A stretch of 64,000 nucleotides of DNA, from positions 10,360 through 74,359 of the forward strand of contig JAWOGY010000063.1 of assembly GCA_046496425.1 (NCBI GenBank), given 5' to 3'. Source of the DNA: Vicinamibacterales bacterium (GTDB taxonomy: Bacteria; Acidobacteriota; Vicinamibacteria; Vicinamibacterales; JAKQTR01). A program made the translations under genes and the position numbers. Shown piece by piece: positions 24,430 to 42,449 of this stretch. How positions within the stretch are numbered: the first letter of the stretch is position 1; every line of letters begins with the position of its first letter. The notes beneath the pieces are model-generated. The model had not been told where the DNA came from. It saw only the letters and a program-made list of their open reading frames with translations, and did not search any database.

Positions 24430-25671
24430 CTAGTCGTGCACGACGATGGTCAGGAGAGAATGCTTAATCTTGAGGACGCCGTTGTATTCGATGAACCCGA
24501 GCTTCTTGAACTTGTTCATGAAGAAGTTCACGCGCGAGCGCGTCGTGCCGATCATCTCCGCGAGTGTCTCCTGGGAGATTTTGGGAACGATCGTCTCGGG
24601 CGTGCTTTCTGCTCCAAAGTGCGCAAGCAAGAGCAGCGTCCGCGCCAGTCGCTTCTCGCTGGAGCTAAACAGCTGGTCGACGAGTTCCGCTTCATATCGA
24701 ATGTTCCGCCCCAACAAATATGCCGTAAACAGGTCCGACAGGCGCTGTTCGTCGTGGAGCGTGACCAGCATCGCCTTTTTCTCGATCCGCATGAGCTCGC
24801 AATCAGTCATGGCGATTGCACTCCCTAAGCGTCGCGCCTGTCCCGTCAGGCACCCTTCTCCGCAGAACGTACCCGGCCCCAAGACTCCGAGCGTCGCACT
24901 CTTGCCGCCCTTCGAGACGACGGTGAGCCTGACATTGCCCTTCTGGACATAAAACACCGCGTCTGCCGCCTCGCCCTGCGCGTAAATGTACTGTTTCTGT
25001 GAAATCCGTACAATTGTTCGGCCCTCACCGATGACGGCAAGGAACTTCTTCGGGTCGAACTCCTGTTGCTTGCCGGCTGCACGGCGTACCACGCTTCGTA
25101 GCGCGTCCGGCATGGCTCCAGGCGGCAGCACGAAATCAATACCTCCGGACGCCTGAGCACTGAGCGGCATGCCGTCGACTTCGGCCGAGAAGTCCTGAGC
25201 AAAGGTCGCTCCTCCGTTTGCCTGGATATGCTGGCAGCCCTTCGTACCATCGTCGCCGTACCCAGAGAAGATGATGCCGATCGCGCGCGCCCCCCAAGCT
25301 TCTGCCAGAGACATGAACAAGAGATCGACCGGATGGTTCGCATTCGTGCGCCGGGAGGCGGCTGTGAAGGCATAGCCCTTAACTTGAAGGGCCGCGTTTG
25401 GAGGCATCACATAAACGTGATTCGCCTGGATCGGCATCCCCTTGGCCGCCTGCCTGACCGGCATTTTCGTGCGACGCGAGAGGACCTCCGCGAGCAGGCT
25501 GTCCGCGACAGGCTGAATCTGAGACGCGATGATAAACGCCATTCCCGTGTCAGACGGAAGGGCATCCACGAGCGCTTTATAGGCGCTGAGAGCTCCCGCT
25601 GATCCACCCACGCCGACGATGAACTGAGGATGCGGTTGACTCATGAGACGATCTGAAACTCTCCAAGCCAC
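24430..25671 (-). CDS. fusion protein: CheB-like methylesterase-fold domain (no receiver domain) plus cNMP-binding domain plus Crp-type HTH
   Basis: N-terminus FIVGVGGSAGALSAY..AFIIASQIQPVADSLL..IIFSGYGDDGTKG aligns with the CheB catalytic domain blocks. C-terminus FCGEGCL (cNMP pocket) and ETLAEMIGTTRSRVNFFMNKFKKLGFI (Crp HTH). The start is uncertain (GTG 25671 or ATG 25644). Lies 20 nt downstream of the kaiC-like stop. Confidence 0.85.
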   Translation of the reverse strand: MAWRVSDRLMSQPHPQFIVGVGGSAGALSAYKALVDALPSDTGMAFIIASQIQPVADSLLAEVLSRRTKMPVRQAAKGMPIQANHVYVMPPNAALQVKGYAFTAASRRTNANHPVDLLFMSLAEAWGARAIGIIFSGYGDDGTKGCQHIQANGGATFAQDFSAEVDGMPLSAQASGGIDFVLPPGAMPDALRSVVRRAAGKQQEFDPKKFLAVIGEGRTIVRISQKQYIYAQGEAADAVFYVQKGNVRLTVVSKGGKSATLGVLGPGTFCGEGCLTGQARRLGSAIAMTDCELMRIEKKAMLVTLHDEQRLSDLFTAYLLGRNIRYEAELVDQLFSSSEKRLARTLLLLAHFGAESTPETIVPKISQETLAEMIGTTRSRVNFFMNKFKKLGFIEYNGVLKIKHSLLTIVVHD

Positions 25672-25690
25672 ATCAAGTCAGCGAACCTGT

Positions 25691-27205
25691 TTATCCCTGA
25701 CTCACGGTAGCGGCTTTACCCACTTTCATTTTCTGCTTGGCACTCGCTGTCGCGTCCGTGTCCATGGGCACCAAGTGAATGCCGTCATCATTCAGGATCA
25801 ATTTGTGGACGTCGCTCGAGTGCCCCATGCCGCGAGACTTGACAATGTACAGGCCCCGAACGCGCCGCTTGCCCTCGTTTTCTTCCAGTTCTCGCACGAC
25901 GATCCACGTGTCGATGAGGGACGAGACGCCGATTTCGCCGCTCGTATCATTTTGAGCGGTTGAAGACACCAGACTCGTGAAGAAGCCGGTGATGCCCTTG
26001 GATTTCAGGAGATCAATCATGCGGGTCAGCATGGATTGCAACTCCAGCTGGTTCCCTTGTCCGATGAGACTGGTCAGCGGATCGATGACCACCGCATGGG
26101 GTTTGAATTCGGCGATGGTCTTGTAGACCTCGAGCAAATGCATCTCTAAACCGAAAAAGGACGGTCTCGTCGACACGATCTTCAAGAGTCGCTTCTTGAT
26201 CAGGGGCTCAAAGTGTATGCCGATGGAACTCATGTTTTGCACGAGTTGCCCTGACGATTCTTCGTACGACAAGAACAGGCACCGCTCTCCACGTTTACAG
26301 CGTTCGATCGCGAAGGCAGCCGCGAGGCTTGTTTTTCCCGTGCCCGCCGTCCCTGAGACCAGTACCGTACTGCCTCGTGTGTAGCCGGCCCCCTTGAACA
26401 TCGTATCGAGCGACGGAATTCCTGTCGACACTCGCTTGGCGGTGCCTGGCTGGTCGAGTCCTGCAGAGGTGATCGGAATGACCGAGAGCCCCTCCTTGTC
26501 GATGACGAAGGGATATTCGTTGGTGCCGTGCTTTGAACCACGATACTTAATTACCCGAATGCGGCGCGTGGCGATCTGTTCTCTGACGCGGTTGTCCAGG
26601 AGGATGATGCAATCGGAAATGTACTCCTCCAGGCCATGACGAGTATACGAGCCATCGCCCAGCTCGCCGGTGATGATGGCGGTGACGTGTTTGTCCTTCA
26701 GCCATCGGAAGAGTCGCTTGATCTCTAAACGAAGAATGCCGGCATCCGTAATACCCGCAAAGAGCGATTCAATCGAGTCGAGAACCACGCGCTTGGCGCC
26801 AATCGAATCGATCGCATGTTCCAAGCGAATGAAGAGCCCTTCCAGGTTGAAATCGCCTTTCTCTTGAATATCTTTGCGTTCCAGACGCACATGCTCAAGG
26901 GCAATCTGCTTGCGCGACACCAGCCCTTGTAAGTCCAGATTGAGAGACGCGACGTCTTTATACAGCTCATCTTCTGTCTCTTCGAAAGACATGAAGATGC
27001 CTCGCTCGTTGTAATGGATCGCGCCGTTGATCAGGAAATCAAGGCCCAGCAGGGTTTTGCCGGTGCCGGTGCTGCCGCTAAACAGACTGATTCTATTCTT
27101 CGGAAGGCCGCCTTCGGTGATTTCGTCAAAGCCTTTGATGCCGGTGGGGCACTTCTCTAATGGCCGGCGATTAGGACTCTTTCGTCTCTTCAGAGTATTG
27201 GGCAT
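25691..27205 (-). CDS. kaiC: KaiC-like double RecA-fold ATPase
   Basis: Two Walker A motifs GSTGTGKT and GTAGTGKT. TGIKGFDEITEGGLP and TGIPSLDTMFKGAGY loops. Walker B blocks VVLDSIESL and VVIDPLTSL. IGVSSLIDTWIVV aligns with the KaiC phosphosite segment. Start trimmed to the ATG at 27205. Confidence 0.9.
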   Translation of the reverse strand: MPNTLKRRKSPNRRPLEKCPTGIKGFDEITEGGLPKNRISLFSGSTGTGKTLLGLDFLINGAIHYNERGIFMSFEETEDELYKDVASLNLDLQGLVSRKQIALEHVRLERKDIQEKGDFNLEGLFIRLEHAIDSIGAKRVVLDSIESLFAGITDAGILRLEIKRLFRWLKDKHVTAIITGELGDGSYTRHGLEEYISDCIILLDNRVREQIATRRIRVIKYRGSKHGTNEYPFVIDKEGLSVIPITSAGLDQPGTAKRVSTGIPSLDTMFKGAGYTRGSTVLVSGTAGTGKTSLAAAFAIERCKRGERCLFLSYEESSGQLVQNMSSIGIHFEPLIKKRLLKIVSTRPSFFGLEMHLLEVYKTIAEFKPHAVVIDPLTSLIGQGNQLELQSMLTRMIDLLKSKGITGFFTSLVSSTAQNDTSGEIGVSSLIDTWIVVRELEENEGKRRVRGLYIVKSRGMGHSSDVHKLILNDDGIHLVPMDTDATASAKQKMKVGKAATVSQG

Positions 27206-27529
27206 ACAAGATCCTTCGCTCGGTGTGGTGCGCGAGCCTCCGAATCGGATTTCGCGCACTGCGACACGTGAACGATAGACGTGTGAGACAGAACGACCCA
27301 AGAACGGCAGACGGAAGGCTCAGCTCCGTCCATCGGCGTGCCAACTTGACAGCGCGAGGATACTCGCACCCATACAGGGTCGACTGTCTCATAATGCACA
27401 CTTCGGATTGAGGGCGCCGGAGCGACCAGCGGCCGCCGGCCTAAGCGGCTCGTTAGGCTGGCATTGCTTACTTGGGCCGGCTCTAAAGAAGCTTCGCTTA
27501 CCTACGTGGTGACCTGATGCGTTCTTCGG

Positions 27530-27700
27530 GCTCATGCGTCCCGACGCCTGGACGGCATCGCGACGCTCCTTCCGAATCCCGACCTGTTCCTGTATAGCTA
27601 CGTCCGGAAAGAGGCCGTGGTGTCGGTCGCGCACGGGAGCGGCGAGTTCGACGGGCTGGAGCTGAGGGCGGTCATCCGATCGATGCCGACGACGCGGCTT
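27530..27700 (+). pseudogene. relic of a Fic-family protein N-terminal (Fic_N) region
   Basis: Hand translation gives RRLDGIATLLPNPDLFLYSYVRKEAVVSVAHGSGE. This resembles the Fic_N consensus (L.G....LPNP.L.....RKEA..SS.IEG) but is degenerate and truncated. Confidence 0.3.
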
Positions 27701-27716
27701 GACTCGCTCCCGTTCG

Positions 27717-28298
27717 TCATGGCGCCGGGTCCCGCTCCCCGAGCGCGCGCTCGAGCAGGTCGGACACGCCAAGGACCCGGGCGTTCTCGCGGAGGTACCC
27801 GACGTCGAGTCTCCCGGCCTGGACCCTGACGATGCCGGCAATGTCGCGCCACTGGCGGTCCGAGACAGCGCCGCCCTGGTGGTACCAGCGCAGCTTCTGC
27901 AGCAGGATGTCCTCGGGCGGGTGCACGTACAGGTGGCGTCCGCCCCCGAGATCGACGCGCAGCCGGCGGGCGAGTTGACTGGCATCCAGGGGCGTCCCGC
28001 CCGCAACGAACAGATCCACCTTCAGTTGCGTACGCTGGTGGATGAGATTCGTGCTGGCGTGCGTCCGGATGGCACGACGCAGCGCGGCGGCATCGACGTA
28101 GAAGTCGGGCGAAAAGGCCGCCACCAGCGATTCCACATCCCGCTCGTCGACCGCCGCGATGACGTCGATGTCGAGGGTTGAGCGCGGCTCGCCGGCGAAC
28201 GAACTGGCAACGGACCCGCCGATCGTGTGCTGGATGTTCAGCTCGTCGAGCAGGCGCGACACCTGGAGGGCCGTTTCGATCGGATCGATGGTGTTCAT
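27717..28298 (-). CDS. minimal nucleotidyltransferase-fold protein (module 1)
   Basis: IGGSVASSFAGEPRSTLDIDVIA (GS..DxD NTase signature). Paralogous to the 36422..36967 product (shared DFY.D..A.RRA......NL.H....KVDL.V and EDILLQKL/EDLLLSKL blocks). ATGA overlap with the upstream small gene. Confidence 0.7.
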   Translation of the reverse strand: MNTIDPIETALQVSRLLDELNIQHTIGGSVASSFAGEPRSTLDIDVIAAVDERDVESLVAAFSPDFYVDAAALRRAIRTHASTNLIHQRTQLKVDLFVAGGTPLDASQLARRLRVDLGGGRHLYVHPPEDILLQKLRWYHQGGAVSDRQWRDIAGIVRVQAGRLDVGYLRENARVLGVSDLLERALGERDPAP

Positions 28299-28564
28299 CG
28301 CCCGGACATCACCTGCCCGGCATCGGAGTAGGCTCGGCGTGCCAGTTCCGGTCCCAGGATGATTACGGCGAGCCGCAGGAACAGCTCACGCGGCGTCGCC
28401 TGCGGGTGCCTCTGACGCACTCCGGCAGCGGTCATGGCGCAAGCCGCGCGGGTCAGCCCCGTCACCGTGGCGGCCTTGTCTCCCGCGGACATCTGGCGCC
28501 ACGACTCGACCAGTTTGCGCTCGACATCGATCGGCGTATCGAGGCTGAGCGGCGTGTGCGTCAC
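28295..28564 (-). CDS. small helical partner protein of NTase module 1
   Basis: 89 aa, GTG start. ERKLVESWRQMSAGDKAATV resembles the partners at 36964..37290 (EQRRLLMARTPDERIVMM) and 58094..58258 (EYWRGRPPEERLAAV). Confidence 0.55.
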   Translation of the reverse strand: MTHTPLSLDTPIDVERKLVESWRQMSAGDKAATVTGLTRAACAMTAAGVRQRHPQATPRELFLRLAVIILGPELARRAYSDAGQVMSGR

Positions 28565-28600
28565 GCGGTCGATTATAGCAGTGGGGGGAGTCTTGGAGTC

Positions 28601-28644
28601 TGGCTGGGAGGCAGGGATTCGAACCCCGATAACGTGGTTCAGAG
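28601..28644 (-). repeat. att-like direct repeat: exact 44-nt copy of the 3' half of tRNA-Gln (outermost copy)
   Basis: tggctgggaggcagggattcgaaccccgataacgtggttcagag is identical to 36191-36234 and 31202-31245. Confidence 0.85.
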
Positions 28645-29028
28645 AGCGGTAAAGGTGTTCCGGTGTGTGTCCTTCCGCTCTCGTTTGCTCCGGTTTTCAC
28701 GGGGACTGCTTCGGTTTGCTCATCTTCGCTCTCGTCTGTTCTCGCGCAAGCTGTCTCATTGTGTCTCAGGGGGCGGTCACCTGAGGAGGTCCGGGCCGCG
28801 GCGAGGAGGGCGACGAGCAGTACGGTCATGCCGGCCGCGAACGGTGCCAGCCTGCCGGCCCAGATCTGCAACGGCGTCAGCACCCTCCGAGTTTTCGGTA
28901 GGGAGGCGGACAGACCGCAAGAACCGCTCGCGTCGTCGTTCTCAGGGGTGGAGGAGGCGTGCCCGGCCGTTCAGTGCCGGCTCCAGCCCTCCCGGTGCGT
29001 CACCGATGACCCGAGTCAGGGAGGGAAC

Positions 29029-30054
29029 ATGATTGCTGCCGCCACGTTCGTGTCCGTCGCGAGAATCGGCGCCGTTGCTTCCGGCCTGATCGCACTGCAG
29101 GCGATCGGTGCCGCGCAGACCGGCGTCAGACAGGTCGCATCGGGACAGGAGACCTACGCGTTGTACCCGGCGACCCTGAAGACGCAGCCCCGCCTCCCAT
29201 CGCCCTACCGCAGCGACGGCCTCGAGGTGGTGACCGCGCGTCTCGACCGGGAGACCTACGCGCTGGTTCCGGTCACCATCACGCCGGGAATCGCGAAACG
29301 CCCCTGGGAAGCTCCGCTGGCGATCGACGGCGAGGACTTCCCGACGCTGGCCAGGACCGGCCGGCACTCCGACGCCGAACTGGATCGGACGCGGTCCATC
29401 ACGGGCCGGTCGCTGGCCGAGATTCACGAACTTGCCCTTCCCGGCCGCCTGTCCGACAGCGGCTTCATCGCGGAAGACGAGGACGTCCTCTCCGTGCTGA
29501 AGGGCGACAACAAGCTGGTCGCCTCGCTCGGTCTGACACACGCCGAGCTGGCCAGGCCGCTGCTGCACGTCTGCACGCTGGTCGGCGAACTCTATCCGGA
29601 CAGCGGGGCGCAGCACAACCTCGTCGTGTTCTACGGAGGCCAGCAAGTGTCACTGGAGGTGTCGTTCAGCCGCGGAGGGCAGAAGTCCATCTTCCAGGAC
29701 GGGCTCGAGGGAGCGTGGACCATCAAGATCCGCCGGGATCTGAGCGAGAAGGAGCGGGCGTTCCTGGACGCAGCCTACGGCAGACTCGGCGCGGCCCGGC
29801 GAGCCAGCATGACGGAACGTCTCACGGAGATGCTCACAGGCGAGATGCAGCCCTTCTACATCTATCGCTACGGCTTCTACGAGGGACACACGGCGTGGAG
29901 GACGGACCCCGTTGCCATCTCGTTCATGTTCGGGCTCAGGTCGATCGAGCAGATCGAGGCCGCGTTCGGCGGGCAACTGGACCACGTGCTGACGCGGCAC
30001 TTCATTCGCCCCCCGATTCGTCCGAGACCGTCGGCAGCATCACCGGCCACGTGA
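29029..30054 (+). CDS. secreted hypothetical protein
   Basis: ORF 28663..30054 trimmed to the ATG at 29029 (AGGGAGGG RBS). Signal-like IGAVASGLIALQAIGAAQ. No motif recognised. Confidence 0.6.
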   Translation: MIAAATFVSVARIGAVASGLIALQAIGAAQTGVRQVASGQETYALYPATLKTQPRLPSPYRSDGLEVVTARLDRETYALVPVTITPGIAKRPWEAPLAIDGEDFPTLARTGRHSDAELDRTRSITGRSLAEIHELALPGRLSDSGFIAEDEDVLSVLKGDNKLVASLGLTHAELARPLLHVCTLVGELYPDSGAQHNLVVFYGGQQVSLEVSFSRGGQKSIFQDGLEGAWTIKIRRDLSEKERAFLDAAYGRLGAARRASMTERLTEMLTGEMQPFYIYRYGFYEGHTAWRTDPVAISFMFGLRSIEQIEAAFGGQLDHVLTRHFIRPPIRPRPSAASPAT

Positions 30055-30093
30055 CGGTGGCCATCCCCAACCGCGAGCACCCCGTCCGCGCGC

Positions 30094-30336
30094 ATGGAGG
30101 CAGAGGCGCGCCGGCTGTCGGACGAACTGCACCTGTCGCAACTCCGAAAGGCGCGTGGCCTGACGCAAGAAGCAATGGCGGACCTGGTGGGCGTGAGCCA
30201 GGCCGGGGTTTCCAGGATGGAACGCCGCAGCGAACTCTTCATCGGCACCCGTAAGCCGCTACCTCCTATCCCTCGCACGCCGCCGCTCACCGTGACGTCG
30301 AACACTCGCACGGCATTGGCGCTGGACCAAGACTAG
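30094..30336 (+). CDS. XRE-family HTH protein (antitoxin-like); the C-terminus is possibly decayed
   Basis: LRKARGLTQEAMADLVGVSQAGVSRMERR is a canonical XRE HTH. The tail after residue approx 50 is Pro/Thr-rich. An alternative frame reads VSRYLLSLARR, which suggests a frameshift. Confidence 0.5.
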   Translation: MEAEARRLSDELHLSQLRKARGLTQEAMADLVGVSQAGVSRMERRSELFIGTRKPLPPIPRTPPLTVTSNTRTALALDQD

Positions 30337-30459
30337 GCCCTGCGGCGAAACGATCGTCCAACCGATTAGCGCCCGAAGCCGGCGGGTTGACCGCCTCCGA
30401 CCCGCGCGGCCCTGATCCGCCGCGAACCAGGTCTCACGGTCCGGACTTGCAGGTTGCGA

Positions 30460-30945
30460 TCAACGGCTGTCTGTCGCTCGCTCGGCCCGTCTCTGCAGGC
30501 GAACCGGGATGTGAAGGCGGACGGGCTGCTGGGGCGTACTCTCGGGATACTCCTCTAAGGGCGCCCGCCCAGCGTCGAACTGAACCGCAGCAGTCGGCAG
30601 CCAGGCGGCGAAGACGTGCTGGTAGGTGGCGCCGATCGCCTGCGCCACGCACTCGAAGACCGCGTAGTCGCCGCCGGGCACGTCACGCATGTCGAGGCCC
30701 TCTGGCGCCGCCGTACCGGACGGCACCATCATGCCTGCCAGGTACTCCGTGACCTGTTCGTCGCCGGTCGGCAGGTTCACCCCGAAATAGACCTTGTCCG
30801 CGGCGATCGAGTCGATCTCCCGGCGGCGAGATTCGAACGCCTGCCAGATGCGGCCAAACAGTTCGGCGCTTTCCGAACCGCGCGTGATTCGGGTGGCCAC
30901 GCCCAGGACGGTGAAAGTTCCGCGGGTCGTGATCTGCGGTGTCAT
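30460..30945 (-). CDS. GyrI-like small-molecule (effector) binding domain protein
   Basis: Trimmed to the ATG at 30945. FTVLGVATRITRGSE..IWQAF..YFGVNLP..EYLAGMMVP..VPGGDYAVFE..FDAGRAPLEEYPE is the typical GyrI-like/AraC-effector domain pattern. Confidence 0.8.
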   Translation of the reverse strand: MTPQITTRGTFTVLGVATRITRGSESAELFGRIWQAFESRRREIDSIAADKVYFGVNLPTGDEQVTEYLAGMMVPSGTAAPEGLDMRDVPGGDYAVFECVAQAIGATYQHVFAAWLPTAAVQFDAGRAPLEEYPESTPQQPVRLHIPVRLQRRAERATDSR

Positions 30946-31201
30946 CGAGACTCCTCTCGAAGAGACCGTGGACGATGCGCGCGGACGACTCGTGGATTGT
31001 ACGCGCTCCACGCCACCAGCCATCCAACGTGTCTCATTCGTGTCTCACGTCTCTCGGCATTCAGCCGGACGCGGCAGCGAACCCGTTGGCCAGCAGCGGT
31101 TTGTGGCTGGCCGAGCCGTGGCCGACAACGTGGTTCCGCGACGAACCCACGCCACGGAATCGCGAGGCGTCGTAAGCTCTTGTTTGTAGAAGGGATTGAA
31201 T

Positions 31202-31245
31202 TGGCTGGGAGGCAGGGATTCGAACCCCGATAACGTGGTTCAGAG
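31202..31245 (-). repeat. att-like direct repeat: exact 44-nt copy of the tRNA-Gln 3' half (second copy)
   Basis: Identical string to 28601-28644 and 36191-36234. Confidence 0.85.
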
Positions 31246-31423
31246 GCGGAAGCCCCGACGGCGACGGTGACGGATCACGTCGGTGTTGTTAGGGTTTTCG
31301 GCGAGGACCTTTGGGCGGTGTGGGGTCAAGACCGATGGTTTCGTGCGCAGTCTATCGAGATTTTATCAAGATCGGGCGACGCGTGGCGCTGTCGGTATCA
31401 GGCCATCCCGATCGGCCCAGCCT

Positions 31424-32084
31424 TCAATTGCCGCTCTTCGAGAGGCCCGAGTCGGCCAGCGCCAACAGTCTCCGCAGGAGCGCCGGACGTCGGGATTGGC
31501 TGGCCGAATCTGGCAGCAGGAAGCCGGAGAGGGCATCGACGAATGCCCGAACGCCGAGCAGGTGGCGCAGTTCAGAAGCAACATACTCCCTGACGTCGGC
31601 CGACGACGCGGCTAGTTCGCGAGCGATCTCCTCACGTCCATCGATCACGGTGACGATATCTTCGAGGTCGTGGCTGTCAGTGATGTCGTTCTGGCCGCGG
31701 CCACGGAAGGCCTCAAGCTTCGTCGCGAGGAAATAGACCGGCGTGATGACACGCAGGCGAAGATCGGCGAGATCCACGTGTTGGGCCGATGAGATGGCGG
31801 GCCGATACCAGCGGTTGCTGAAGCCGAGGACCCGATCGTCGGTGGGCATCACATCGATGATTAGATGCTGGTGGCGCCACCGGCACATTGGCGCGCCCTG
31901 GCTCGCGTCTTCTCTCAGCCCCAATCCGCGCAGTCGCGACGTCCTTCGTGGGGCGGACACCGGCGGCGGCCGGATCCGAAATCATCAGCCCCGTCGTGCA
32001 CCCACCCAAGAACACGAGTTCACCGAGGAGTGGCCGCAACACACGTGCCGCAGCGGCGAGCATCTCCAGATTGGGGTCATCCAT
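31424..32084 (-). pseudogene. frameshifted nucleotidyltransferase-fold gene
   Basis: The N-terminal 48 aa (ORF 31713..32084: LVFLGGCTTGLMISDPAAAGVRPTKDV) continue in another frame (ORF 31424..31960: ..IIDVMPTDDRVLGFSNRWY..PVYFLATKLEAFRGRGQNDITDSHDLEDIVTVIDGR). One frameshift lies near 31940. Confidence 0.6.
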
Positions 32085-32613
32085 GGAGTTGCTGGCGCAG
32101 TCGCGCGGTCAATTCCTGACCGGCGAGGCGTCGCTCCCGGGCGCGACCGTCCCGAAGAGCGTCGATCAATGCCAGCAGTTCGTACAACAGCGGATCTCGC
32201 AGTGCGGCGATCGGGACGGTCCTGTACAACGGCTCAAGTCCGATGCCGCGCTGTTTGCCCTCGGCGTACGGCCAAACCGGCGGCAATTCGGTGCCGGAGG
32301 CGATCTTCCCGGCCAGAGGCGGCGCCGCGTAGGAAGTGGCCAAGCCACGGGTCGGCTGACCGCGCTTCGCCGGAAAGGCGTACTTCACGCCGTGGAGCAG
32401 GAATTCTTCGACTGCTTGGAGTAGAGGACGACCATCGTCTGCCTCGTCGGACACCAAGCGCGAGATCGCCAGGCGCTTCAGGGCGCCATGGACCTCGGAC
32501 GTGCTGAGGGACAAGTCCAGACCCATTCGAGCCATGGGTGGGCGCGGCCCACGGTAGCTGATGAGCTTGGCCAGTACGAACACGTCTTGGGGCCGAAGGC
32601 TGGGCTGAGTCAT
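32077..32613 (-). CDS. winged-helix DNA-binding protein, partner of the frameshifted NTase gene
   Basis: 178 aa. LSLSTSEVHGALKRLAISRLV is wHTH-like. Its stop overlaps the NTase start by 8 nt. Confidence 0.5.
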   Translation of the reverse strand: MTQPSLRPQDVFVLAKLISYRGPRPPMARMGLDLSLSTSEVHGALKRLAISRLVSDEADDGRPLLQAVEEFLLHGVKYAFPAKRGQPTRGLATSYAAPPLAGKIASGTELPPVWPYAEGKQRGIGLEPLYRTVPIAALRDPLLYELLALIDALRDGRARERRLAGQELTARLRQQLHG

Positions 32614-32687
32614 TCAATATTCGCGAATCGCGAACACAGGATAGCACAGAACCGTTCAATGTCCGCATTCCAGAACGTAAGTAAGCG

Positions 32688-32921
32688 TTGGGGCCTTATC
32701 GCTTACTCGAGAGTACCGTAAAGAAGCGTCTGTTACTTGCTGGCGGATGGACGTTGTCCACGAACCAAGAGTTGGTGATCGTTCCAGAGGTCAGAGACAA
32801 GCTGCTGGATGCCTGGGGCATCGACGCCGGCGGGCGCGTCGGCGAGTTCTCAAGAGAACAGAGCGCCTACTTGGACTACCACCGCGCGAACGTGTTCAAG
32901 CATCAACTCCTCGGAAGATGA
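32688..32921 (+). CDS. small hypothetical protein
   Basis: 77-aa ORF in a locally lower-GC stretch. No motif recognised. Confidence 0.3.
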   Translation: MGPYRLLESTVKKRLLLAGGWTLSTNQELVIVPEVRDKLLDAWGIDAGGRVGEFSREQSAYLDYHRANVFKHQLLGR

Positions 32922-33096
32922 GCGTCCACGACTCGATCGACCGAGATGACTGTTCGGTGCACGCGCCGCGTGCCTTCGGGCTTGTCTGGAATCTGCTCTG
33001 TCTCGGTCCTCGCGAACTGAGCCGAGGTCGAGAGCGTGTCTTGAGGGAGGGGTCGACGGCCTGCGATCGCGCGGTGCGGTACGTGCCTGTCGTTCG

Positions 33097-34032
33097 TCAT
33101 CTCGCGTAAGCACCGCCGGAAAGCTCGTACCCGAACTGCAAAACCGACGGTTCCAAGACGACGCCACCTGCGAGCGGATGAATGCCTCGAAGCTGCCACG
33201 ACGAGCCGTCGCCGCATTCCCGCTCGCGATGCCCGACGAAAGCGATGCGCACGATGTCACGCATCCCAGAGGATAGCGGGGGAAACAGCACCTGCGCGCC
33301 GGCGGACCCGGCTCCATCCGTGACCGCTCCGCTCGGCACGCAGCGGGCCGTCACCGCGAGACCGCCGGTGTCGATCGATCCCCGCCAGGTGCCGGCCACG
33401 TCGTCTTCGAGCGTGACGTTGCCGTAGGTGGCGTAGTGGCCCCGGCCGCGTACGTAGGTGACGTACGCCCGGTCGGGCACCCAGAATCCGAGGACGAGGA
33501 GCGGGCGCCCAGGGCCGACGTCTGCCGTCGGGTCTGAAGGAGCGACGCGGGCGCACCACAGGGCGGCGGCTCCGTGCGTTCGCCAGTCGGGCGTGCGGCC
33601 GTCGATCGTGAACGTCCCCGCGCGGATGATCTCCAGGAACGATATGCCCCAGTTGCGGTGTGCCGGATGCCTCGCCAGGTAATCGGCCGCCCAGCGCACC
33701 TCGCCCGCTGCCAGTTCGTCTATCGTGATGAACCGCAGCGTGCGCGGGCGCTCGCGTTCGACCCGCGCCGGATCGAAAGTGACATACACGACGATCTCGT
33801 GGGGATCGGCGACGATCCAGCGCGTGCGGGCGCCCGCCGGAAGCGCGGGACCTTGCGACGGAGTCCCGGAAGAGGCCAGCGCCAGCAGCACGGGGCACAG
33901 TAGTGGCGCTGCGGTCAGCCACGTCAGCGATTTACACCCGAAACGCGATCGGCATGTTGACGTCACTTGGCCCCCGATTCGATCCTGTGTACCGAGGCAA
34001 GGGTAGCATCTCACGATCCGGAGCGCGGTCAC
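33097..34032 (-). CDS. secreted hypothetical protein
   Basis: 311-aa ORF. Signal-like LTWLTAAPLLCPVLLALASSG about 35 residues in, so the true start is probably internal. High GC3. No motif recognised. Confidence 0.5.
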   Translation of the reverse strand: MTALRIVRCYPCLGTQDRIGGQVTSTCRSRFGCKSLTWLTAAPLLCPVLLALASSGTPSQGPALPAGARTRWIVADPHEIVVYVTFDPARVERERPRTLRFITIDELAAGEVRWAADYLARHPAHRNWGISFLEIIRAGTFTIDGRTPDWRTHGAAALWCARVAPSDPTADVGPGRPLLVLGFWVPDRAYVTYVRGRGHYATYGNVTLEDDVAGTWRGSIDTGGLAVTARCVPSGAVTDGAGSAGAQVLFPPLSSGMRDIVRIAFVGHRERECGDGSSWQLRGIHPLAGGVVLEPSVLQFGYELSGGAYAR

Positions 34033-34330
34033 AGGATCGACGCCGAGTCCGGTCAGAAGCTCTCAGCGGCCGAATGACCGAGTCAGGCGCGTTCTTCTCG
34101 ATTGAACGCTCTGAGTCGTCAGTCGATCTCCTGGTCGCATCGCGCCGTTCGGTCAACGTGTCTCATTCGTGTCTCATCGAGACTCCGCGAGTCTGCCGAC
34201 GCGTCGACTCATGCCCGGAATATCAAGCGGTTGCAGATATCCAAGCCGCGCCCGATAACGTGGCCCGCGGGCGGATCGACGGCCTGCGATCGCGAGGTGC
34301 TGTAAGTGCTTACTGTGAATGGGATTGGAT

Positions 34331-34374
34331 TGGCTGGGAGGCGGGGACGATTTCCGCAACTGGGTCATCGCGGC
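34331..34374 (-). repeat. degenerate copy of the tRNA-Gln 3' half
   Basis: tggctgggaggc is exact (34331-34342). The remainder (ggggacgatttccgcaactgggtca) is only loosely alignable to the att string. Confidence 0.45.
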
Positions 34375-34450
34375 GTGACGTGGCGAGCCCAGTCGCACAA
34401 AGGGCCGGGCGATTCAAGCCGACGCCTGCGCGCAGTATTGCGGTGATGAC

Positions 34451-34831
34451 TTGCCTCAAAAGGCTTTCTTCGACGTGACCTTGACGTGCGAGGACTGCCA
34501 ATCCGATTTCAGGTTCACGGCCAGTGAACAGAAATTCTGGTATGAGGATCTGAAGTTCTTCGAGGAGTCGCGCCCCAAGCAGTGTCGCCGATGTCGCCCC
34601 ATCCGGCGCCGAACCGGCGCTCTCACCGCCGAACTTGGGCAGGCGCTCAAGGCCCTCGCTTCAAAGGACCCCGCGCTGCTGACCCGGATTGCTGACATCT
34701 ACATCGAGCTTGGCGACATCGAAAAGGCTTCACTGTATTTGCGACGAGCGAAGAACCAGACGGCGGACCCGGGCGGCAAGGCCGCTCTCATCGAGCGACT
34801 GGCAGAGCTGTCACGCGAACCTGACGCGTGA
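34451..34831 (+). CDS. zinc-ribbon protein (CxxC..FxFTxxEQxF..CxxC type) with a helical C-terminus
   Basis: LTCEDCQSDFRFTASEQKFWYEDLKFFEESRPKQCRRCR. Start uncertain (TTG 34451 or GTG 34475). Confidence 0.6.
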   Translation: MPQKAFFDVTLTCEDCQSDFRFTASEQKFWYEDLKFFEESRPKQCRRCRPIRRRTGALTAELGQALKALASKDPALLTRIADIYIELGDIEKASLYLRRAKNQTADPGGKAALIERLAELSREPDA

Positions 34832-34900
34832 TTCCCACCTCAGTTCATCGTCGGGCGGCGCGTCCGCCCGGAAGAAGCAGCGCCGATCCGGCTTGCGGCG

Positions 34901-35395
34901 TCATGAAGGACAGACTGGGGGTTGGAACAACATGGCCACCGCCTCCGTCGGGCACGAAGCAGGACACTCGCCATACGGATACTCGTTGAGCATGTCTTGA
35001 ACCGACGCTTCGTCCTGTCCGCCTTCAACGTGCGCCTGGCCTTCGATCTTTGCGAAACCCAGTGCTTCGGCCAGCGCTGGATTGCGACCCCTCACGAATA
35101 GCGCCTGGCGAAGGCCCCTGCATTCGGGGTCGATGAACTCTGGATACACGCGGCAGGTGACGAGCGAATGTCGAAGAGCCGCAGCAAGCCGGTCTCGCAG
35201 CCCGGCAACCGGGCGGATCCGGGTGACCAGCGTCAGGCAGGTCTTCACCTCGATCGCAACAAGCAGGTCTCCGCCTGCAGGGATGGCCGCCCAGTGTGCC
35301 AGCCGGACGGTCGGGCCGGGAGCAGCTTCACCTTCCAGTACCCCGCCCTCGCTGAGCGCCGCGTGCAGCTTCGATGAACATGTGATCGTGACCAT
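34901..35395 (-). CDS. hypothetical protein
   Basis: ORF 34901..35464 trimmed to the ATG at 35395. High GC3. No motif recognised. Confidence 0.45.
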   Translation of the reverse strand: MVTITCSSKLHAALSEGGVLEGEAAPGPTVRLAHWAAIPAGGDLLVAIEVKTCLTLVTRIRPVAGLRDRLAAALRHSLVTCRVYPEFIDPECRGLRQALFVRGRNPALAEALGFAKIEGQAHVEGGQDEASVQDMLNEYPYGECPASCPTEAVAMLFQPPVCPS

Positions 35396-35477
35396 GGCCT
35401 CCTCCTTTTGAATGGCCGGAGAGGACGTCCGGCGGAAACTTCTGCGCGTCGCGCTCGCCTGCACGGAAGACGTAGGT

Positions 35478-35738
35478 TCAGCTACCGAAGTGTCGCGTCG
35501 CGAAGGCCCGGCCCGAGCCGGACTTCAGGTAGCGTTCGAAGCGCACGGCTTGTTGCTCGGTCGGGAACTCGATGACGACCACCAAGGACCAGGGGCGGTG
35601 CTCGAAGGTATGTCCGCACGGACCGTGGTTGTGCCACTCCAGCCGATTGCCGACGTCGCTCGTCACGCCGACGTAGTGACGGCTCGGGTCGACATCGCTC
35701 CGAACGATGTACACGAAGCGCTTGCCGATGCCGAGCAT
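35478..35738 (-). CDS. GIY-YIG nuclease superfamily protein (short form)
   Basis: FVYIVRSDVDPSRHYVGVTSDVGNRLEWHNHG matches the GIY..YIG..R..H/N pattern. Trimmed to the ATG at 35738. Confidence 0.75.
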   Translation of the reverse strand: MLGIGKRFVYIVRSDVDPSRHYVGVTSDVGNRLEWHNHGPCGHTFEHRPWSLVVVIEFPTEQQAVRFERYLKSGSGRAFATRHFGS

Positions 35739-35864
35739 GCCGAGGCGAAAGCAATCCTCGGGCCGATCCTCTGCGGCACGATTCCTCCGGTAAACGTGGG
35801 GCTGCGCCGCACTTTGTCTTCTTGGGCTGCGCAGATTCTGCAACGCTCCGGCGGGCGCGATGTT

Positions 35865-35963
35865 GCGGAAACTGCCAAGTCAGGGCTTCGCGCGCGTTGA
35901 TGAACGCCGTCGGGAAGGGTTTGAGTCCGGTGCGGGTGGTCCGCCTTCGCCTCGCCTTCGCAG
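35865..35963. repeat. dispersed repeat R, copy 2
   Basis: Matches 23335-23433. Lies about 230 nt from the tRNA-Gln 3' end. Confidence 0.7.
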
Positions 35964-36190
35964 ACTTCGCTCACTCCGGCGAGGCTTCGGCGAGGTCGGT
36001 CTTCACCTTAAGGTGTCCGAATCCCTGCAGGGAGTCCGCCTTCGCCCGGCCTCAGTTCACTGCGCCCTCTTCGGCTCGGGCTACGTCGAGACAGCCTTCG
36101 CCTGTCGGGAAGCTCACGTGCGGCTAGGGCAACGGGAACTGACGCTGACTTGCCTGCCTAGCCGTAGCTCGCGCGAAGCCGAGCGAAGGC

Positions 36191-36264
36191 TGGCTGGGAG
36201 GCAGGGATTCGAACCCCGATAACGTGGTTCAGAGCCACGTGTCCTACCGTTGAACGACCTCCCA
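36191..36264 (-). tRNA. tRNA-Gln (anticodon CTG), CCA encoded
   Basis: The reverse complement folds by hand. Acceptor UGGGAGG/CCUCCCA, D stem GUUC/GGAC, anticodon stem CGUGG/CCACG with loop CUCUGAA, T arm CGGGG-UUCGAAU-CCCUG, discriminator G, CCA. Confidence 0.9.
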
Positions 36265-36421
36265 GCATGGAGAATCGCGGCGGGAACAACCGATTAATTC
36301 TATCGCAAACAGGCCTCTTTCGGCCAGCGTGCGGCCGGAGCGCGTTCGGCGCGCCCCGCGGCAGCCGCGGCCCCGGACGCGTTGCTGCCCTCGTGGTACA
36401 CTCCGGTCCGGACCGAACGCT

Positions 36422-36967
36422 ATGGCTGATCTCCTCGATGTCCTCCGCATCGTGACGTCACGTCTCGAGCTGGCGGGCGTCCCGTACATGGTGAGCGGGT
36501 CGCTGGCGCTCGGCTACTACGCGCAGCCTCGGATGACGCGGGACATCGATGTGGTCGTGGAGCTCGACGACGAGGGCGTCCATCGTGTCGTTGCGGCCTT
36601 CGCCTCGGATTTCTACTGCGACGAGGATGCCATCAGGCGGGCGGTCGCAACTCGCCGGCTCGTCAATCTGGTTCATCTCGAATCGGCGTACAAGGTCGAT
36701 CTCATCGTCCGGAAAGACTCGGAATACCGCCAGGTCGAGTTCCAGCGAAGGCGCCGGCTCTCGCTCGGCGGCGTCGACATCTGGCTTGTCGCACCGGAGG
36801 ATTTGCTGCTGTCGAAACTGCTATGGGCCCGCGAGAGCGGGTCCGAGTTGCAGTTGCGCGACGCCGCCAATCTGGTCGCATCGGTACCGGACCTCGATTG
36901 GCCGTACAGCTCCCGCTGGGCATCCGCGCTGGGCGTGGCGCGTGAACTGGAGGCGCTGAAGCCGTGA
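36422..36967 (+). CDS. minimal nucleotidyltransferase-fold protein (module 2)
   Basis: VSGSLALGYYAQPRMTRDIDVVV signature. Paralog of 27717..28298. Trimmed to the ATG at 36422. Confidence 0.7.
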   Translation: MADLLDVLRIVTSRLELAGVPYMVSGSLALGYYAQPRMTRDIDVVVELDDEGVHRVVAAFASDFYCDEDAIRRAVATRRLVNLVHLESAYKVDLIVRKDSEYRQVEFQRRRRLSLGGVDIWLVAPEDLLLSKLLWARESGSELQLRDAANLVASVPDLDWPYSSRWASALGVARELEALKP

Positions 36968-37290
36968 TCCCGCGGGCCGCAGACACGGCGCCGGACGCGG
37001 CCGCCGAACAGCGACGCCTCCTGATGGCGCGGACGCCGGACGAGCGGATTGTCATGATGGTCGCGATGTGGCGCGATGCCGTGTCGATCGTGGAGTCCCG
37101 GCTCATCGCGGATGGCGTGGTCGACCCCCCCGCCCTCCGCGCCGGGCGGTTCCGGCAGATCTACGCGTCGGACTTCGATGCGCCGACGCTCGATCGCATC
37201 GCGAGCCGGATTGCCGCCGCCGCCATCAGTCGCCCGCCCCGAACGCAATCGGCCGCACCGCCTACCGGGATTCATCAGTCAGACAGGTGA
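36964..37290 (+). CDS. small helical partner protein of NTase module 2
   Basis: GTG start overlaps the NTase stop (GTGA). Its N-terminal block is similar to the 28295..28564 product. Here the partner is downstream of the NTase, the opposite order to module 1. Confidence 0.5.
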   Translation: MIPRAADTAPDAAAEQRRLLMARTPDERIVMMVAMWRDAVSIVESRLIADGVVDPPALRAGRFRQIYASDFDAPTLDRIASRIAAAAISRPPRTQSAAPPTGIHQSDR

Positions 37291-37375: not shown

Positions 37376-38950
37376 TCAGCCCTGCGGCCGGAAGGCTTGC
37401 AGCGCGTGCGCCATCCGCGCGAGCGCCCGCTCCCGGCCCAGCAACTCCAGCACCTCGAAGATCCCGGGGCTTTCCGCGCGGCCGACAACCGCGACGCGCG
37501 TCGGATGGATGAGCACGCCGGCCTTCACGCCGCGCGCCTCGGCCAGGGCGCGGATGGCCGGCTCGAGAGCCACAGCGGTAAACGCCTGAGCCGCCGCGCA
37601 TGCGTCACGCACCGCGGCCAGATGCGCCAGCGCGTCGGCCGACGAGAGGTGCTTCTTCACGGCGTCCGCGTCGTACTCGAGTTCGTCCGCGAGGAAAGGC
37701 CTCCCCTTCTCGACGAAGTCCGTCAGCCGCTTCGCCCGCGGGCGCAGCAGTTCGACGAGCCGCGTAAGCCATGCCCCCGGGTCTGACGTGTCCTGAGCGA
37801 GCGCTGCGTCCGAAGGCGAGTCGAAGGAAGACCCAAGGCTCCATGCAGCGGGCCACAGGCCGGCCTCGCGAAGCCGCGGCTCGATGCGGCGTACAAGCTC
37901 CGCCGCCGGCATCCGCGCAATGTGCTGCGCGCTGAACCACTCGAGCTTTTCGGGGTTGAAGACGGCGTTGCTGTTGCTGATGCCCTCGAGCGAGAACGCC
38001 GCGATGAGGTCGTCGCGCGTGAAGAATTCCTGGTCATTGCCCGGCGACCAGCCGAGCAGCGCGAGGAAGTTCATCATCGCCTCGGGCAGGTAGCCCTGTT
38101 TCGAGTACTCGGTCACCGACGTGGCGCCGTGACGCTTGCTCAGCCGGCGCTTGTCGGGACCGAGGATGAGCGGCACGTGCGCGAAGGCGGGCAACGGCTT
38201 GCCGAACGCGCGGTAAAGCAGCACCTGCTTCGGCGTGTTCGAGATGTGATCGTCACCGCGCACGACATGGGTGATCGCCATGTCAATGTCGTCGGCCACC
38301 ACCGACAGGTGATACGTCGGATGGCCGTCCGAGCGCAGCGCGACGAAGTCCTCGATGTGCGCGTTGTCGAAGGTGATGTCCCCATGCACGAGATCGTGGA
38401 AGGTCGTCTCGCCCGGCGGTACCTTGAAGCGGATGGCGCGCGGCATCTTCGCCGCCTCGCGCGCCGCCACCTCGTCGGGCGTCAGCCGCGAGCAGCGGCG
38501 ATCGTAGGTCCACGAGTCAGGGCCTCCCTCTTCTCTGGGCCCTGCCTCGCCGAAGCCGGCAGCGGTTTCATCGCCGGCGGAGGCGGGCGCCGCCGGGGCT
38601 TCAGTCCCGCCGGCCTCGGATCCGCAATAACAGTAGTACGCATGTCCCTCGCGGACAAGCTGCTCGGCAAGCTCCCGGTACCGCGCGAGGCGCTGCGACT
38701 GGAAGTAGGGGCCGTGCGCGCCGCCCACCTCGGGGCCCTCGTCCCAGTCGAGCCCGACCCACCGCATCCCGTCCAGAATGCCGGTGACCATGTCGGCCGA
38801 CGAGCGCTCGACGTCCGTGTCCTCGATGCGCAGCACAAGGACGCCTCCCGTCCGCCGCGCGTAGAGCCAGTTGAACAGGGCGGTCCTCGCCCCGCCAACG
38901 TGCAGGTATCCAGTCGGCGACGGGGCGAAGCGGAGGCGGGGAGTGGGCAT
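37376..38950 (-). CDS. gltX: glutamate--tRNA ligase
   Basis: RFAPSPTGYLHVGGARTALFNWL (HIGH region), RIEDTD, and LSKRHG (KMSKS-type). 524 aa, with a Gly/Ala/Glu-rich insertion after CYC. Confidence 0.95.
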   Translation of the reverse strand: MPTPRLRFAPSPTGYLHVGGARTALFNWLYARRTGGVLVLRIEDTDVERSSADMVTGILDGMRWVGLDWDEGPEVGGAHGPYFQSQRLARYRELAEQLVREGHAYYCYCGSEAGGTEAPAAPASAGDETAAGFGEAGPREEGGPDSWTYDRRCSRLTPDEVAAREAAKMPRAIRFKVPPGETTFHDLVHGDITFDNAHIEDFVALRSDGHPTYHLSVVADDIDMAITHVVRGDDHISNTPKQVLLYRAFGKPLPAFAHVPLILGPDKRRLSKRHGATSVTEYSKQGYLPEAMMNFLALLGWSPGNDQEFFTRDDLIAAFSLEGISNSNAVFNPEKLEWFSAQHIARMPAAELVRRIEPRLREAGLWPAAWSLGSSFDSPSDAALAQDTSDPGAWLTRLVELLRPRAKRLTDFVEKGRPFLADELEYDADAVKKHLSSADALAHLAAVRDACAAAQAFTAVALEPAIRALAEARGVKAGVLIHPTRVAVVGRAESPGIFEVLELLGRERALARMAHALQAFRPQG

Positions 38951-39051: not shown

Positions 39052-39200
39052 GCGCGTGGATTTCCGAAGGACTGGTGCCCCTCAGGTCTCCGTCGCTGAC
39101 GACATTATAGCGATCGAAGACGCTGCGTGTCTTGTGGCCGCTCAGTTTAATTGCCAGGCGCCCGGCCGTGGCCGTCCGGCTCGGGTAGGAGCGGACACGA
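39047..39200 (-). pseudogene. C-terminal relic of a tyrosine recombinase (phage-type integrase)
   Basis: ..RLAIKLSGHKTRSVFDRYNVVSDGDLR matches the conserved integrase C-terminal block (GHKT...F.RYNIVS..DL, which holds the catalytic Tyr). Everything upstream is missing or degenerate. It abuts the 5' end of tRNA-Ser. Confidence 0.5.
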
Positions 39201-39371
39201 CACGGGACTGAAGCGCCTGGTGTGCTCAATGGCACAGACTCGAGGGGAAGGACCTCCTACACTCGTACCAACAAGGCCTCAGCCGTCGCGGCGGCTCCGA
39301 CGGCGTCATCACCGCGGCAGCGTCACTGACGCGCGCCGCACGGGCCGTGGTCGTCACAGAGGAGGGGTGTC

Positions 39372-39461
39372 ATGGCGAAGTATGGACTTGCATGGATGCT
39401 GGGCGTTCCGGTGTCACTGCTGATTGTGATCTACCTGGTCAGCCAGGTGGCGTGCAGGTAG
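39372..39461 (+). CDS. 29-aa single-TM peptide
   Basis: GAGGAGGGG RBS 6 nt before the ATG. MAKYGLAWMLGVPVSLLIVIYLVSQVACR. Below the ORF-track length cutoff. Confidence 0.35.
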   Translation: MAKYGLAWMLGVPVSLLIVIYLVSQVACR

Positions 39462-39498
39462 TAGGCCGGTCGGCCGGACAAGCGGCCAAGGAGACCAC

Positions 39499-39720: not shown

Positions 39721-39778
39721 GCAGCATCCTGACTCCGATACGCGCGACGCTCAAACGAATGGTCACAAGGGAGTTGAA

Positions 39779-40201: not shown

Positions 40202-40252
40202 CTCGTACCACTCGAGCGCATTCCTCGCAACATCGAATCAGGAGACATCGAC

Positions 40253-42430: not shown

Positions 42431-42449
42431 AGAAGGAACCGGGCGCGCC

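Follow-up and report, generated by a model that had tools for sequence, protein, structure and literature searches.

The 64,000-nt stretch analyzed here (hereafter the window; forward-strand positions 10,360 to 74,359 of contig JAWOGY010000063.1, assembly GCA_046496425.1, from a Vicinamibacterales bacterium of the Acidobacteriota) carries a tandem array of small islets downstream of a tRNA-Gln(CTG) gene. Insertion has taken place repeatedly at this one tRNA; the islets meet at junctions of two families, have conserved arms delimited by a motif, encode no recombinases, and show recent presence/absence polymorphism at the tRNA-derived core. We consider it probable, at about 65%, that the array was built by successive insertions at tRNA-Gln, and that its units are recombinase-free cassettes which retain complete arms and are mobilized by an integrase acting in trans.

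The islet array and its repeats

Both ARAGORN and Rfam (RF00005, 60 bits) called an intact tRNA-Gln(CTG) on the minus strand at 36191-36264, the gene named in an earlier interpretation of the window made without database searches (the sequence-only reading). The 3' 44 nt of this gene (36191-36234), which span from the encoded CCA end to position 32 in the anticodon loop, are the first copy of a 44-mer that recurs exactly at 31202-31245, as a displaced tRNA 3' half at the junction of islets B1 and A, and at 28601-28644, as the outermost intact tRNA 3' half. Chance would predict none of these copies, all of which read on the plus strand, and the spacings along the array (2601, 3129, and 1860 nt) agree with the segment sizes given in the sequence-only reading. 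The arrangement is that of an intact tRNA gene with direct repeats of its 3' part around foreign DNA. Terminal inverted repeats, target-site duplication, and multiple sites, as for insertion sequences (IS) or miniature inverted-repeat transposable elements, were not found: the repeats are direct and the site is always tRNA-Gln. In neither the window nor the 80 related loci was the 44-mer seen anywhere but downstream of tRNA-Gln, which rules against its being a generic dispersed repeat.

The three segments of the earlier interpretation are indeed bounded by repeats. The 3.1-kb segment, however, consists of two islets fused at 33004/33005, so that the array has at least four units, and island DNA continues to the left of 28601. 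The units are islet A (2.6 kb), islets B1 and B2 (fused, their junction lost), and islet C (1.8 kb); in the proposed order, moving away from the tRNA, they would run from C as the newest through B2, B1, and A into decayed DNA. Decay within the window comprises a frameshift, truncations, and the one lost junction.

tRNA-Gln is an integration hotspot across the clade

The neighboring GluRS-type gene (37376-38950) was used as a query for related loci, giving 80 loci from Acidobacteriota, mostly Vicinamibacterales-like metagenome-assembled genomes (MAGs); the locus set altogether came to 157 loci, given here as L numbers. The closest by GluRS identity were L005 (88%), L001 (79%), L003 (74%), and L002 (71%), and an exact look-up of the window's own GluRS in the contig collection found none on record. 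The order tRNA-Ser(GCT), GluRS, tRNA-Gln is widely kept among the relatives. The DNA that follows tRNA-Gln differs and is unrelated between genomes, with the same tRNA beside the same GluRS in Vicinamibacterales-like relatives. Further copies of the tRNA 3' part lie downstream in L010 (4.7 kb), L003 (2 kb), L012 (two copies), and L025 (two copies). A tyrosine integrase adjoins tRNA-Gln in L017, L028, and L155, and in L155 and L157 the gene of a second integrase lineage stops at 11-19 nt from the end of tRNA-Gln. Decayed integrases were also present: one is truncated within the 2-kb islet of L003, which has 44-mers at both borders, one is frameshifted at tRNA-Gln in L031, and one in L136/L096 is interrupted by an IS3 orfA. 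The variable content, extra tRNA 3' copies, and integrases in relatives indicate that tRNA-Gln is an integration hotspot in the whole clade, and this comparison supports the proposal of repeated site-specific integration into the tRNA-Gln 3' half made in the sequence-only reading. An empty-site allele, with tRNA-Gln joined straight to the sequence left of 28601, was not found in the 157 loci.

The integrase open reading frames (ORFs) of L028 (13651-15192), L003 (1404-2036), and L017 (13912-14907) lack a stop codon ahead of the attachment (att) site and continue across the tRNA 3' half (WLGGRDSNPD being translated tRNA), so that the C-terminal tail differs between the integrated and the excised state.

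Conserved arms lie on both sides of the core

Islet A (28601-31245, both cores included) has a 44-mer at each end together with conserved DNA, one arm lying to the right of 28601 and the other to the left of 31202, so that each end has a conserved arm. The left, tRNA-distal arm (28645-28769, plus strand) ends in CTGTCTCAttGTGTCTCA at 28751-28768, which begins 150 nt from the start of the core. The right arm (31025-31201, plus strand) is 71% identical to the corresponding arm of B2 and has GTGTCTCAttcGTGTCTCA at 31029-31047, 154 nt from the core. Each arm of A is closed by a pair of 8-mers, 10-11 bp apart on the same strand. The right, tRNA-proximal arm of B2 (34154-34330, plus strand) likewise has GTGTCTCAttcGTGTCTCA at 34158-34176, 154 nt from its core. 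The ~175 nt to the left of 31202 and of 34331 are homologous (71% identity) and share the exact 20-mer CGTGTCTCATTCGTGTCTCA. The same right arm directly follows the intact tRNA-Gln of L019, and across these three arms the 20-mer is exact amid 65-70% identity elsewhere. Units of GTGTCTCA in the window number nine on the plus strand vs one on the minus strand, with ~1.25 expected.

The 19-mer right-arm motif GTGTCTCAttcGTGTCTCA was used as a metagenome probe and was found in 71 metagenome contigs and two viral contigs. An intact tRNA-Gln(CTG) lies 74-178 nt from the motif, in the geometry of the window, in 14 loci. On the same strand, the distance from motif to core in 46 loci was quantized, at 72-76 nt (17 loci), 152-155 nt (20), 176 nt (4), and 231 nt (2), and the arms of the window belong to the 152-155-nt class. 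The left-arm motif was not part of the probe, making it an independent test: the left arm recurs, 72-85% conserved, in ~17-20 metagenome loci. Among 18 unique left arms the motif pair is the best-conserved non-tRNA block (at least 90% per column) and similarity ends just after it, while in more than 40 right arms the motif comes ~5-30 nt after the start. The recurrent unit is a motif, 73 or 153 nt, the 44-mer, ~105 nt, and a second motif (260-340 bp in all, with unrelated DNA outside), and this motif-core-motif module recurs at islet boundaries. With phased GTGTCTCA pairs at fixed distances on either side of the core, the junction looks like a lambda-type attP of 260-340 bp.

Complete islets with both arms (n = 10) measured 1.2, 1.6, 2.2, 2.5, 2.6 (islet A), 3.05, 3.5, 4.0, 4.85, and 10.8 kb. 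By Pfam, the cargo of eight other complete islets included a HicB-like antitoxin, a Schlafen-type helicase, MNT/HepT, DUF5677 with AbiEii, a Gp49/HigB-like toxin, an AAA_14-DUF4143 ATPase, PRiA4_ORF3, and Hsp70/DnaJ/GrpE with ERCC4 and AlbA_2. Islet cargo is mostly toxin-antitoxin (TA) or defense-like, and clustering of ORFs across the motif loci found no protein family in common. The largest armed islet (L116, 1061-11882; 10.8 kb) holds Hsp70/GrpE/DnaJ, an ERCC4 nuclease-HhH, and a Schlafen AlbA_2, an unusual combination with a defense-like look.

Both 153-nt right arms of the window contain a decayed stretch resembling the tRNA 3' half (TGGCTGG followed by CCGAyAACGTGG), at 31093-31135 in the arm of A and at ~34230-34275 in that of B2, and L112 and L138 have two cores ~100 nt apart; the long arm class may therefore stem from an older junction. 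Separately, the 11-bp unit GTGTCTCATTC occurs in longer tandem runs of up to ~5 units, without a tRNA-Gln core, in L122, L148, and L153 (and L152), some of these contigs having low GC (0.46-0.52). These runs may represent a different element, or the repeat may serve there in an unrelated role. Plus-strand ORFs of 440-510 aa that pass through the motif in L091, L123, and L138 were rejected as Arg-rich antisense shadows of AbiEi/AbiEii-like genes.

A second junction family and recent change at the core

The copy at 34331, which the sequence-only reading had taken for a degenerate 44-mer, is not a decayed repeat but a second, conserved type of junction, made of a 17-nt core and a non-tRNA arm. 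The core, TGGCTGGGAGGCgGGGA (34331-34347, plus strand), marks the junction of C and B2 and shares only 17 nt with the 44-mer, with one mismatch (72% over 51 nt). This core and the following ~30-50 nt, which open with CGATTTCCGCAACTGG, are kept in L025, L004 (twice), L014 (three times), L029, L094, L136, and L156, and form a second type of arm (family 2), for which no more of the tRNA is used than its last 17 nt. The three family-2 junctions of L014, a different MAG, bound segments of 1.5-3.4 kb. They lie downstream of tRNA-Gln at 13695-13745, 17091-17129, and 19611-19641 and delimit three small integrase-less segments, in an array composed of the second family alone.

Islet C (34348-36190) belongs to this second family and is probably the most recently gained unit of the array. 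Its conserved distal arm, degP, lies at 34348-34400, and a hairpin or REP-like (repetitive extragenic palindromic) flank adjoins the tRNA at ~36100-36190. This flank and the GIY-YIG gene of C are conserved directly after tRNA-Gln in L002, L010, and L029, the flank also in L005, and L117 has a C-type block of flank and GIY-YIG gene, together with a displaced 44-mer, on the distal side of an A-like islet. Given this position beside the tRNA in four relatives, C was considered as native flanking DNA, which appears to fit less well than a mobile unit: C has a distal 17-nt core and a conserved arm, and presence/absence polymorphism was seen between the window and L101 and between L136 and L096.

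In the latter pair, the contigs are 99.77% identical over 4,270 nt and split inside the 17-nt core, past which L096 has the intact tRNA and L136 a second-family arm. The window, with C, and L101, without C, split in the same way at the core, beside a 98%-identical B2. These splits indicate that an integrase-less unit was recently gained or lost through recombination at the core in two lineages. Islet C has since lost 610 nt of its zf_Tbcl/TPR gene, as seen by comparison of the window with L094.

Islet B2 has likewise been found in several settings. The block 33005-34347 is 95-98% identical in L089, L094, L100, L101, L129, and L130, with different neighbors. In L130 and L089, B2 is preceded by ~110 nt, a full left arm, and a 44-mer, vs the window and L100, where this left junction is replaced by B1-type DNA. 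On its other side stands an intact tRNA (L101), the 44-mer and left arm of another islet (L129 and L150), or a 17-nt junction (the window and L094). An islet encoding a 674-aa helicase similarly occurs in different array contexts.

A dispersed REP-like family rich in GCCTTCGC was seen at 36100-36190, 60720-60800, 35849-36103, 23319-23433, 37792-37833 (inverted), and 475-501, and the 45-nt stretches that directly follow tRNA-Gln and tRNA-Ser(TGA) share 91% identity. Compensatory stem changes among the window, L002, L005, L010, and L029 occur in the hairpin GCTCNNNC-ttc-GNNNGAGC, which may be a terminator, a processing signal, or a mobile REP.

Search for a recombinase

A tyrosine-recombinase profile hidden Markov model (HMM) was built from 120 homologs and run on all six frames of the 64-kb window. 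This search, Pfam on the segments and their flanks, and tblastn with the integrases of relatives were all empty, bearing out the statement in the sequence-only reading that none of the segments encodes a recombinase. With the integrases of related loci, tblastn matched the translated tRNA part only and gave no trace of an integrase pseudogene in the window. The usual integrase gene inside the island, next to the tRNA, was thus not found. Eight other complete islets (1.2-10.8 kb) had no recombinase or transposase by Pfam, 150 further ORFs of the motif loci, when scanned, included no recurrent integrase, and the HMM across the motif loci matched only one fragment, common to L096 and L136, and, weakly, L102. 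No ICE or IME genes (of integrative and conjugative or integrative and mobilizable elements) were found in any of 11 islets, and the junction module had no match in phage and plasmid collections.

Two tRNA-Gln cores in L157 enclose an integrase-bearing element, both arms of which contain the repeat GTGGAGAaatcGTGGAGA, again in 11-bp phase. Measured from the start of the core, its distal copy begins at 154 nt, vs 150 nt for the motif in the window, and this layout supports the view that the repeats are integrase arm sites whose sequence is specific to a subfamily. At the 3' ends of the L154, L155, and L157 integrase genes, GTGGAGAaatcGTGGAGA encodes a conserved C-terminal peptide of this lineage (G-E/D-I-V/L-E-T). 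In L157 the same DNA lies at 10444-10479 and 5493-5528, recurring as non-coding sequence on the other arm. From these positions, GTGGAGAaatcGTGGAGA may be coding sequence that doubles as an arm-type site.

Several candidate sources of the arms or of the recombinase were rejected. The idea that the arms are remnants of the 3' end of an integrase gene was based on a tblastn match (L003 tail and the arm of A) and an in-frame peptide likeness, which were mainly translated tRNA, and a DNA alignment of integrase tails with arms was unconvincing past ~15 nt beside the core. Integrase elements of the L028/L017 and L155/L157 types were considered as the source of the arms, and neither has GTGTCTCA pairs. 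Miniature tyrosine recombinases of 165-177 aa were suggested by the best 120 homologs of the L136 fragment, all of them short; their contexts had frameshifts or indels in long-read assemblies, or contig ends, and we treated the short lengths as an artifact.

Proposed mobilization in trans and alternative explanations

In the proposed explanation, the islets fall into two families of small cassettes (1-11 kb) which lack a recombinase but have their attachment-site arms complete. Members of family 1 (A, B1, and B2) carry the 44-nt block, bounded within the anticodon loop, and their arms end in GTGTCTCA pairs phased by 10-11 bp. These pairs flank the core on both sides, all on one strand, at ~150 nt from the core start on one side and 73 or 153 nt on the other. 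Family 2 (C) has no more than the final 17 nt of the tRNA, combined with another conserved arm. The phased GTGTCTCA repeats are putative arm-type sites of a heterobivalent tyrosine integrase, which would be encoded elsewhere by a helper element or a chromosomal gene. Acting in trans, such an integrase would excise a cassette as an arm-core-arm circle and re-insert it at tRNA-Gln or at any core of the array. Each newcomer would restore the tRNA and push the earlier tRNA 3' half and the older islets inward, and transfer from cell to cell would require another vehicle.

The uniform arms on both sides, the eight of eight other complete members free of a recombinase, and the near-identical contigs that differ at the core together favor mobilization in trans. 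Of the two possibilities raised in the sequence-only reading, deletion remnants of larger islands or satellites mobilized in trans, the evidence favors small elements mobilized in trans, although decay is also real. Several points weigh against this. The frameshifted PDC-M21B gene, the truncated XRE and zf genes, the lost B1/B2 junction, and the one mismatch in the 17-nt core suggest that at least part of the array may now be immobile. A cognate integrase was not found in the window, linked to GTGTCTCA arms, or in the phage or plasmid collections, most comparison contigs being short, so that an integrase several kb away would escape detection. The presence/absence polymorphisms could represent site-specific loss rather than gain, and the family-1 islets could have arrived in cis, as passive cargo of an integrase-bearing neighbor.

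The array could instead be an immobile graveyard of full-size integrase-bearing islands or prophages, each of which independently lost its integrase and most of its genes. The decayed integrases at this site in L003, L031, and L136/L096 fit such a history, as do the pseudogenes and lost junction among the window's own islets, and remnants of this kind in tRNA islands were described for tycheposons (bioRxiv 10.1101/2020.12.28.424599). Independent deletion predicts random breakpoints, however, and more than 40 right arms start ~5-30 nt from the motif while 18 left arms end just after it. The motif itself is kept exactly, with the rest of the arm ~30% diverged, the window has no integrase pseudogene trace, all eight other complete islets are recombinase-free, and an integrase-less islet was recently gained or lost between 99.8%-identical contigs; we regard independent deletion as unlikely. 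It seems still less probable that the islets move in cis only, as classical cis-mobilizable elements (CIMEs), when an integrase-bearing element lands alongside and the composite excises via the outer att sites. Precedent exists both for CIMEs as a concept and for accretion at tRNA genes (PMC5704250), and the L136/L096 integrase fragment does sit at the distal end of an armed-islet array. Selection would then be expected at the outer sites alone, whereas every islet has both arms with phased repeats and single islets (B2 and the 674-aa helicase islet) occur in different array contexts. An origin without any integration, with the tRNA fragments and arms as a dispersed repeat or a product of local duplication or unequal crossing-over, could appeal to the REP-like hairpin family, which is dispersed in the genome and lies beside two tRNAs. 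Yet each unit has its own, unrelated DNA between the repeats, the repeat matches the tRNA 3' half exactly, on the strand of the tRNA, and was found only downstream of tRNA-Gln (in the window and 80 loci), and relatives carry different content at the same site, making this origin very improbable.

Comparison with known elements

Tandem accretion at tRNA genes, and elements that keep att sites without integration genes, are already established. CIMEs related to ICESt1 and ICESt3 of Streptococcus thermophilus lack integration and transfer genes and retain attL and attR, and accretion in tandem at the 3' end of a target gene, with newcomers entering a resident att site, is likewise known (PMC5704250). 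The islets resemble these elements in lacking mobility genes, in keeping their att sites (islet A retains both cores and both conserved arms, as attL and attR, without a recombinase), and in their tandem stack at the 3' end of a target gene. CIMEs were, however, described as decay products of identifiable ICEs or IMEs, whereas the islets have no ICE or IME genes, have uniform ends over dozens of loci, carry very diverse cargo in 1-11 kb, and reside in Acidobacteriota. This combination points to a self-standing recombinase-free lineage, and the uniform arm ends argue against independent decay. We see the islets as minimal integrative cassettes with lambda-like sites and no recombinase, of a lineage that is widespread in Acidobacteriota.

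In Prochlorococcus, tycheposons integrate at tRNA genes, with a partial tRNA between neighbors, newcomers that push older elements inward, and scattered remnants (bioRxiv 10.1101/2020.12.28.424599). The islets share the integration at a tRNA gene and the tandem units parted by partial tRNAs. Tycheposons, however, come with a tyrosine (or serine) recombinase of their own and in many cases with a replication module, and the islets encode neither.

The ssrA-specific islands of Dehalococcoides differ from the islets in that, as far as is known, each has its own integrase. These islands are described as tandem, with direct repeats of the 3' end of the small-RNA gene (PMC3146451), and they share with the islets repeated integration at a single small-RNA gene.

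The attP site of lambda has a core between P and P' arms that bear arm-type Int sites. At the level of sequence, the islet junction resembles it in its 260-340 bp, its central core, and the short direct repeats on both arms with a phasing of about one helical turn; the islets differ in having no int or xis. Integron arrays have an intI/attI platform with Pc at their head, and their cassettes end in attC imperfect inverted repeats. The islets share with them an ordered series of small recombinase-free cassettes with bounding recombination sites, diverse cargo, and, as proposed for the islets, a recombinase outside the cassettes. They differ in that the head of the array is a tRNA gene, with no intI/attI beside it in the 64-kb window, the cores are derived from the tRNA and have direct-repeat arms in place of attC, and the cassettes hold 1-10 genes on either strand. 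We tentatively suggest that Vicinamibacterales-like Acidobacteriota may have, at tRNA-Gln, an integron-like cassette system made of lambda-type parts, in which a self-standing lineage of recombinase-free cassettes, with complete attP-like modules (260-340 bp, with phased GTGTCTCA arm sites) at their borders, would be captured, stacked, and shuffled by an integrase encoded elsewhere, forming an exchangeable store of defense and TA genes, with the 17-nt-core family competing for the same tRNA.

For most genomic islands, no means of movement is known. Here, very small islands have shed all mobility genes and yet keep elaborate, conserved recombination sites, with recent gain or loss between near-identical genomes. 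Were an integrase indeed acting in trans, the islets would be a minimal class of hitchhiker for integration itself, beyond transfer, and would provide a route for the exchange of defense and TA genes among abundant and poorly studied soil Acidobacteriota. The conserved arm motif is a sequence handle with which such cassettes and their helper can be sought in metagenomes.

Cargo of the window's islets and neighboring regions

The cargo named in the sequence-only reading was verified for the truncated XRE HTH, the Cass2/GyrI-like protein, the zf_Tbcl+TPR and GIY-YIG proteins, and the frameshifted nucleotidyltransferase (NTase) with its partner. The cargo of islet A (28770-31024; Pfam and PADLOC/NCBIfam) comprises a 341-aa protein with no assigned family and a signal-peptide-like N-terminus (29029-30054, plus strand), the truncated XRE HTH (30094-30336, plus strand; Pfam), which is 88% identical to the XRE of the A-like islet of L117, and the Cass2/GyrI-like protein (30460-30945, minus strand; Pfam).

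Islet B1 (31246-33004), fused to B2, has lost its own right arm and core and has a type-2 left arm (31246-31380) kept in L117, L105, L113, L139, and L134. The frameshifted NTase and its partner in this islet matched, in PADLOC, the candidate defense pair PDC-M21B (31424-32084, minus strand, frameshifted) and PDC-M21A (32077-32613, minus strand), with E-values for the PDC-M21A/B pair of 7e-45 and 3.5e-46. Intact homologs of the pair are present in L156 and L012. The body of B2 (33005-34153, minus strand) consists of one gene and an older arm remnant (33020-33086). The gene product (33097-34032, minus strand; 311 aa) has a signal-peptide-like N-terminus and no family match in Pfam, NCBIfam, or PADLOC. 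Islet C encodes a 5'-truncated zf_Tbcl+TPR ORF (34451-34831, plus strand; Pfam), a 164-aa protein with no assigned family (34901-35395, minus strand), and the GIY-YIG protein (35478-35738/35843, minus strand; Pfam).

Outside the last repeat lies older, decayed island DNA (27384-28600), in which no further cores were found to the left of 28601. It contains a lone CTGTCTCA unit at 27384, a remnant of the N-terminal part of a Fic gene (27545-27625), an NTase with a weak AbiEii-like Pfam match (27717-28298, minus strand), and the 89-aa partner of this NTase (28295-28564, minus strand). Positions 27451-27630 match DNA inside the tRNA-Gln island of L002 (94% nt and 96% aa identity). The pair at 27717-28564 is paralogous to a second NTase and small-partner pair at 36329-37290 (DUF6036/AbiEii-like, 38% identical, on opposite strands), such that these pairs flank the array, one beyond the last 44-mer and one between tRNA-Gln and GluRS.

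A 150-nt block at 18946-19097 is 93% identical to L001 13983-14137, which there follows tRNA-Gln after 44 nt, and the variable region may therefore reach back to ~19.1 kb. A minus-strand ORF (MAKPRMDLTAF) has its 5' leader and its first 12 codons in this block, which has the 16-mer CCGTGTGTGTCCTTCC in common with the left arm at 28663. Genes of TA or defense type to the left of the array encode Uma2 (10788-11465), a PIN protein (11745-12194), and a HipA_C kinase (17637-18905). The region 24430-27301 has low GC (0.52-0.58 vs 0.67) and encodes a KaiC-family ATPase beside an unusual CheB-methylesterase/cNMP-binding/Crp-HTH fusion protein. Next to tRNA-Ser(GCT), on its 5' side, ~3.9 kb (39052-42960) is missing from the closest relative, L005, in which the genes on either side adjoin each other; this segment includes an 81-nt imperfect direct repeat (39527-39721).

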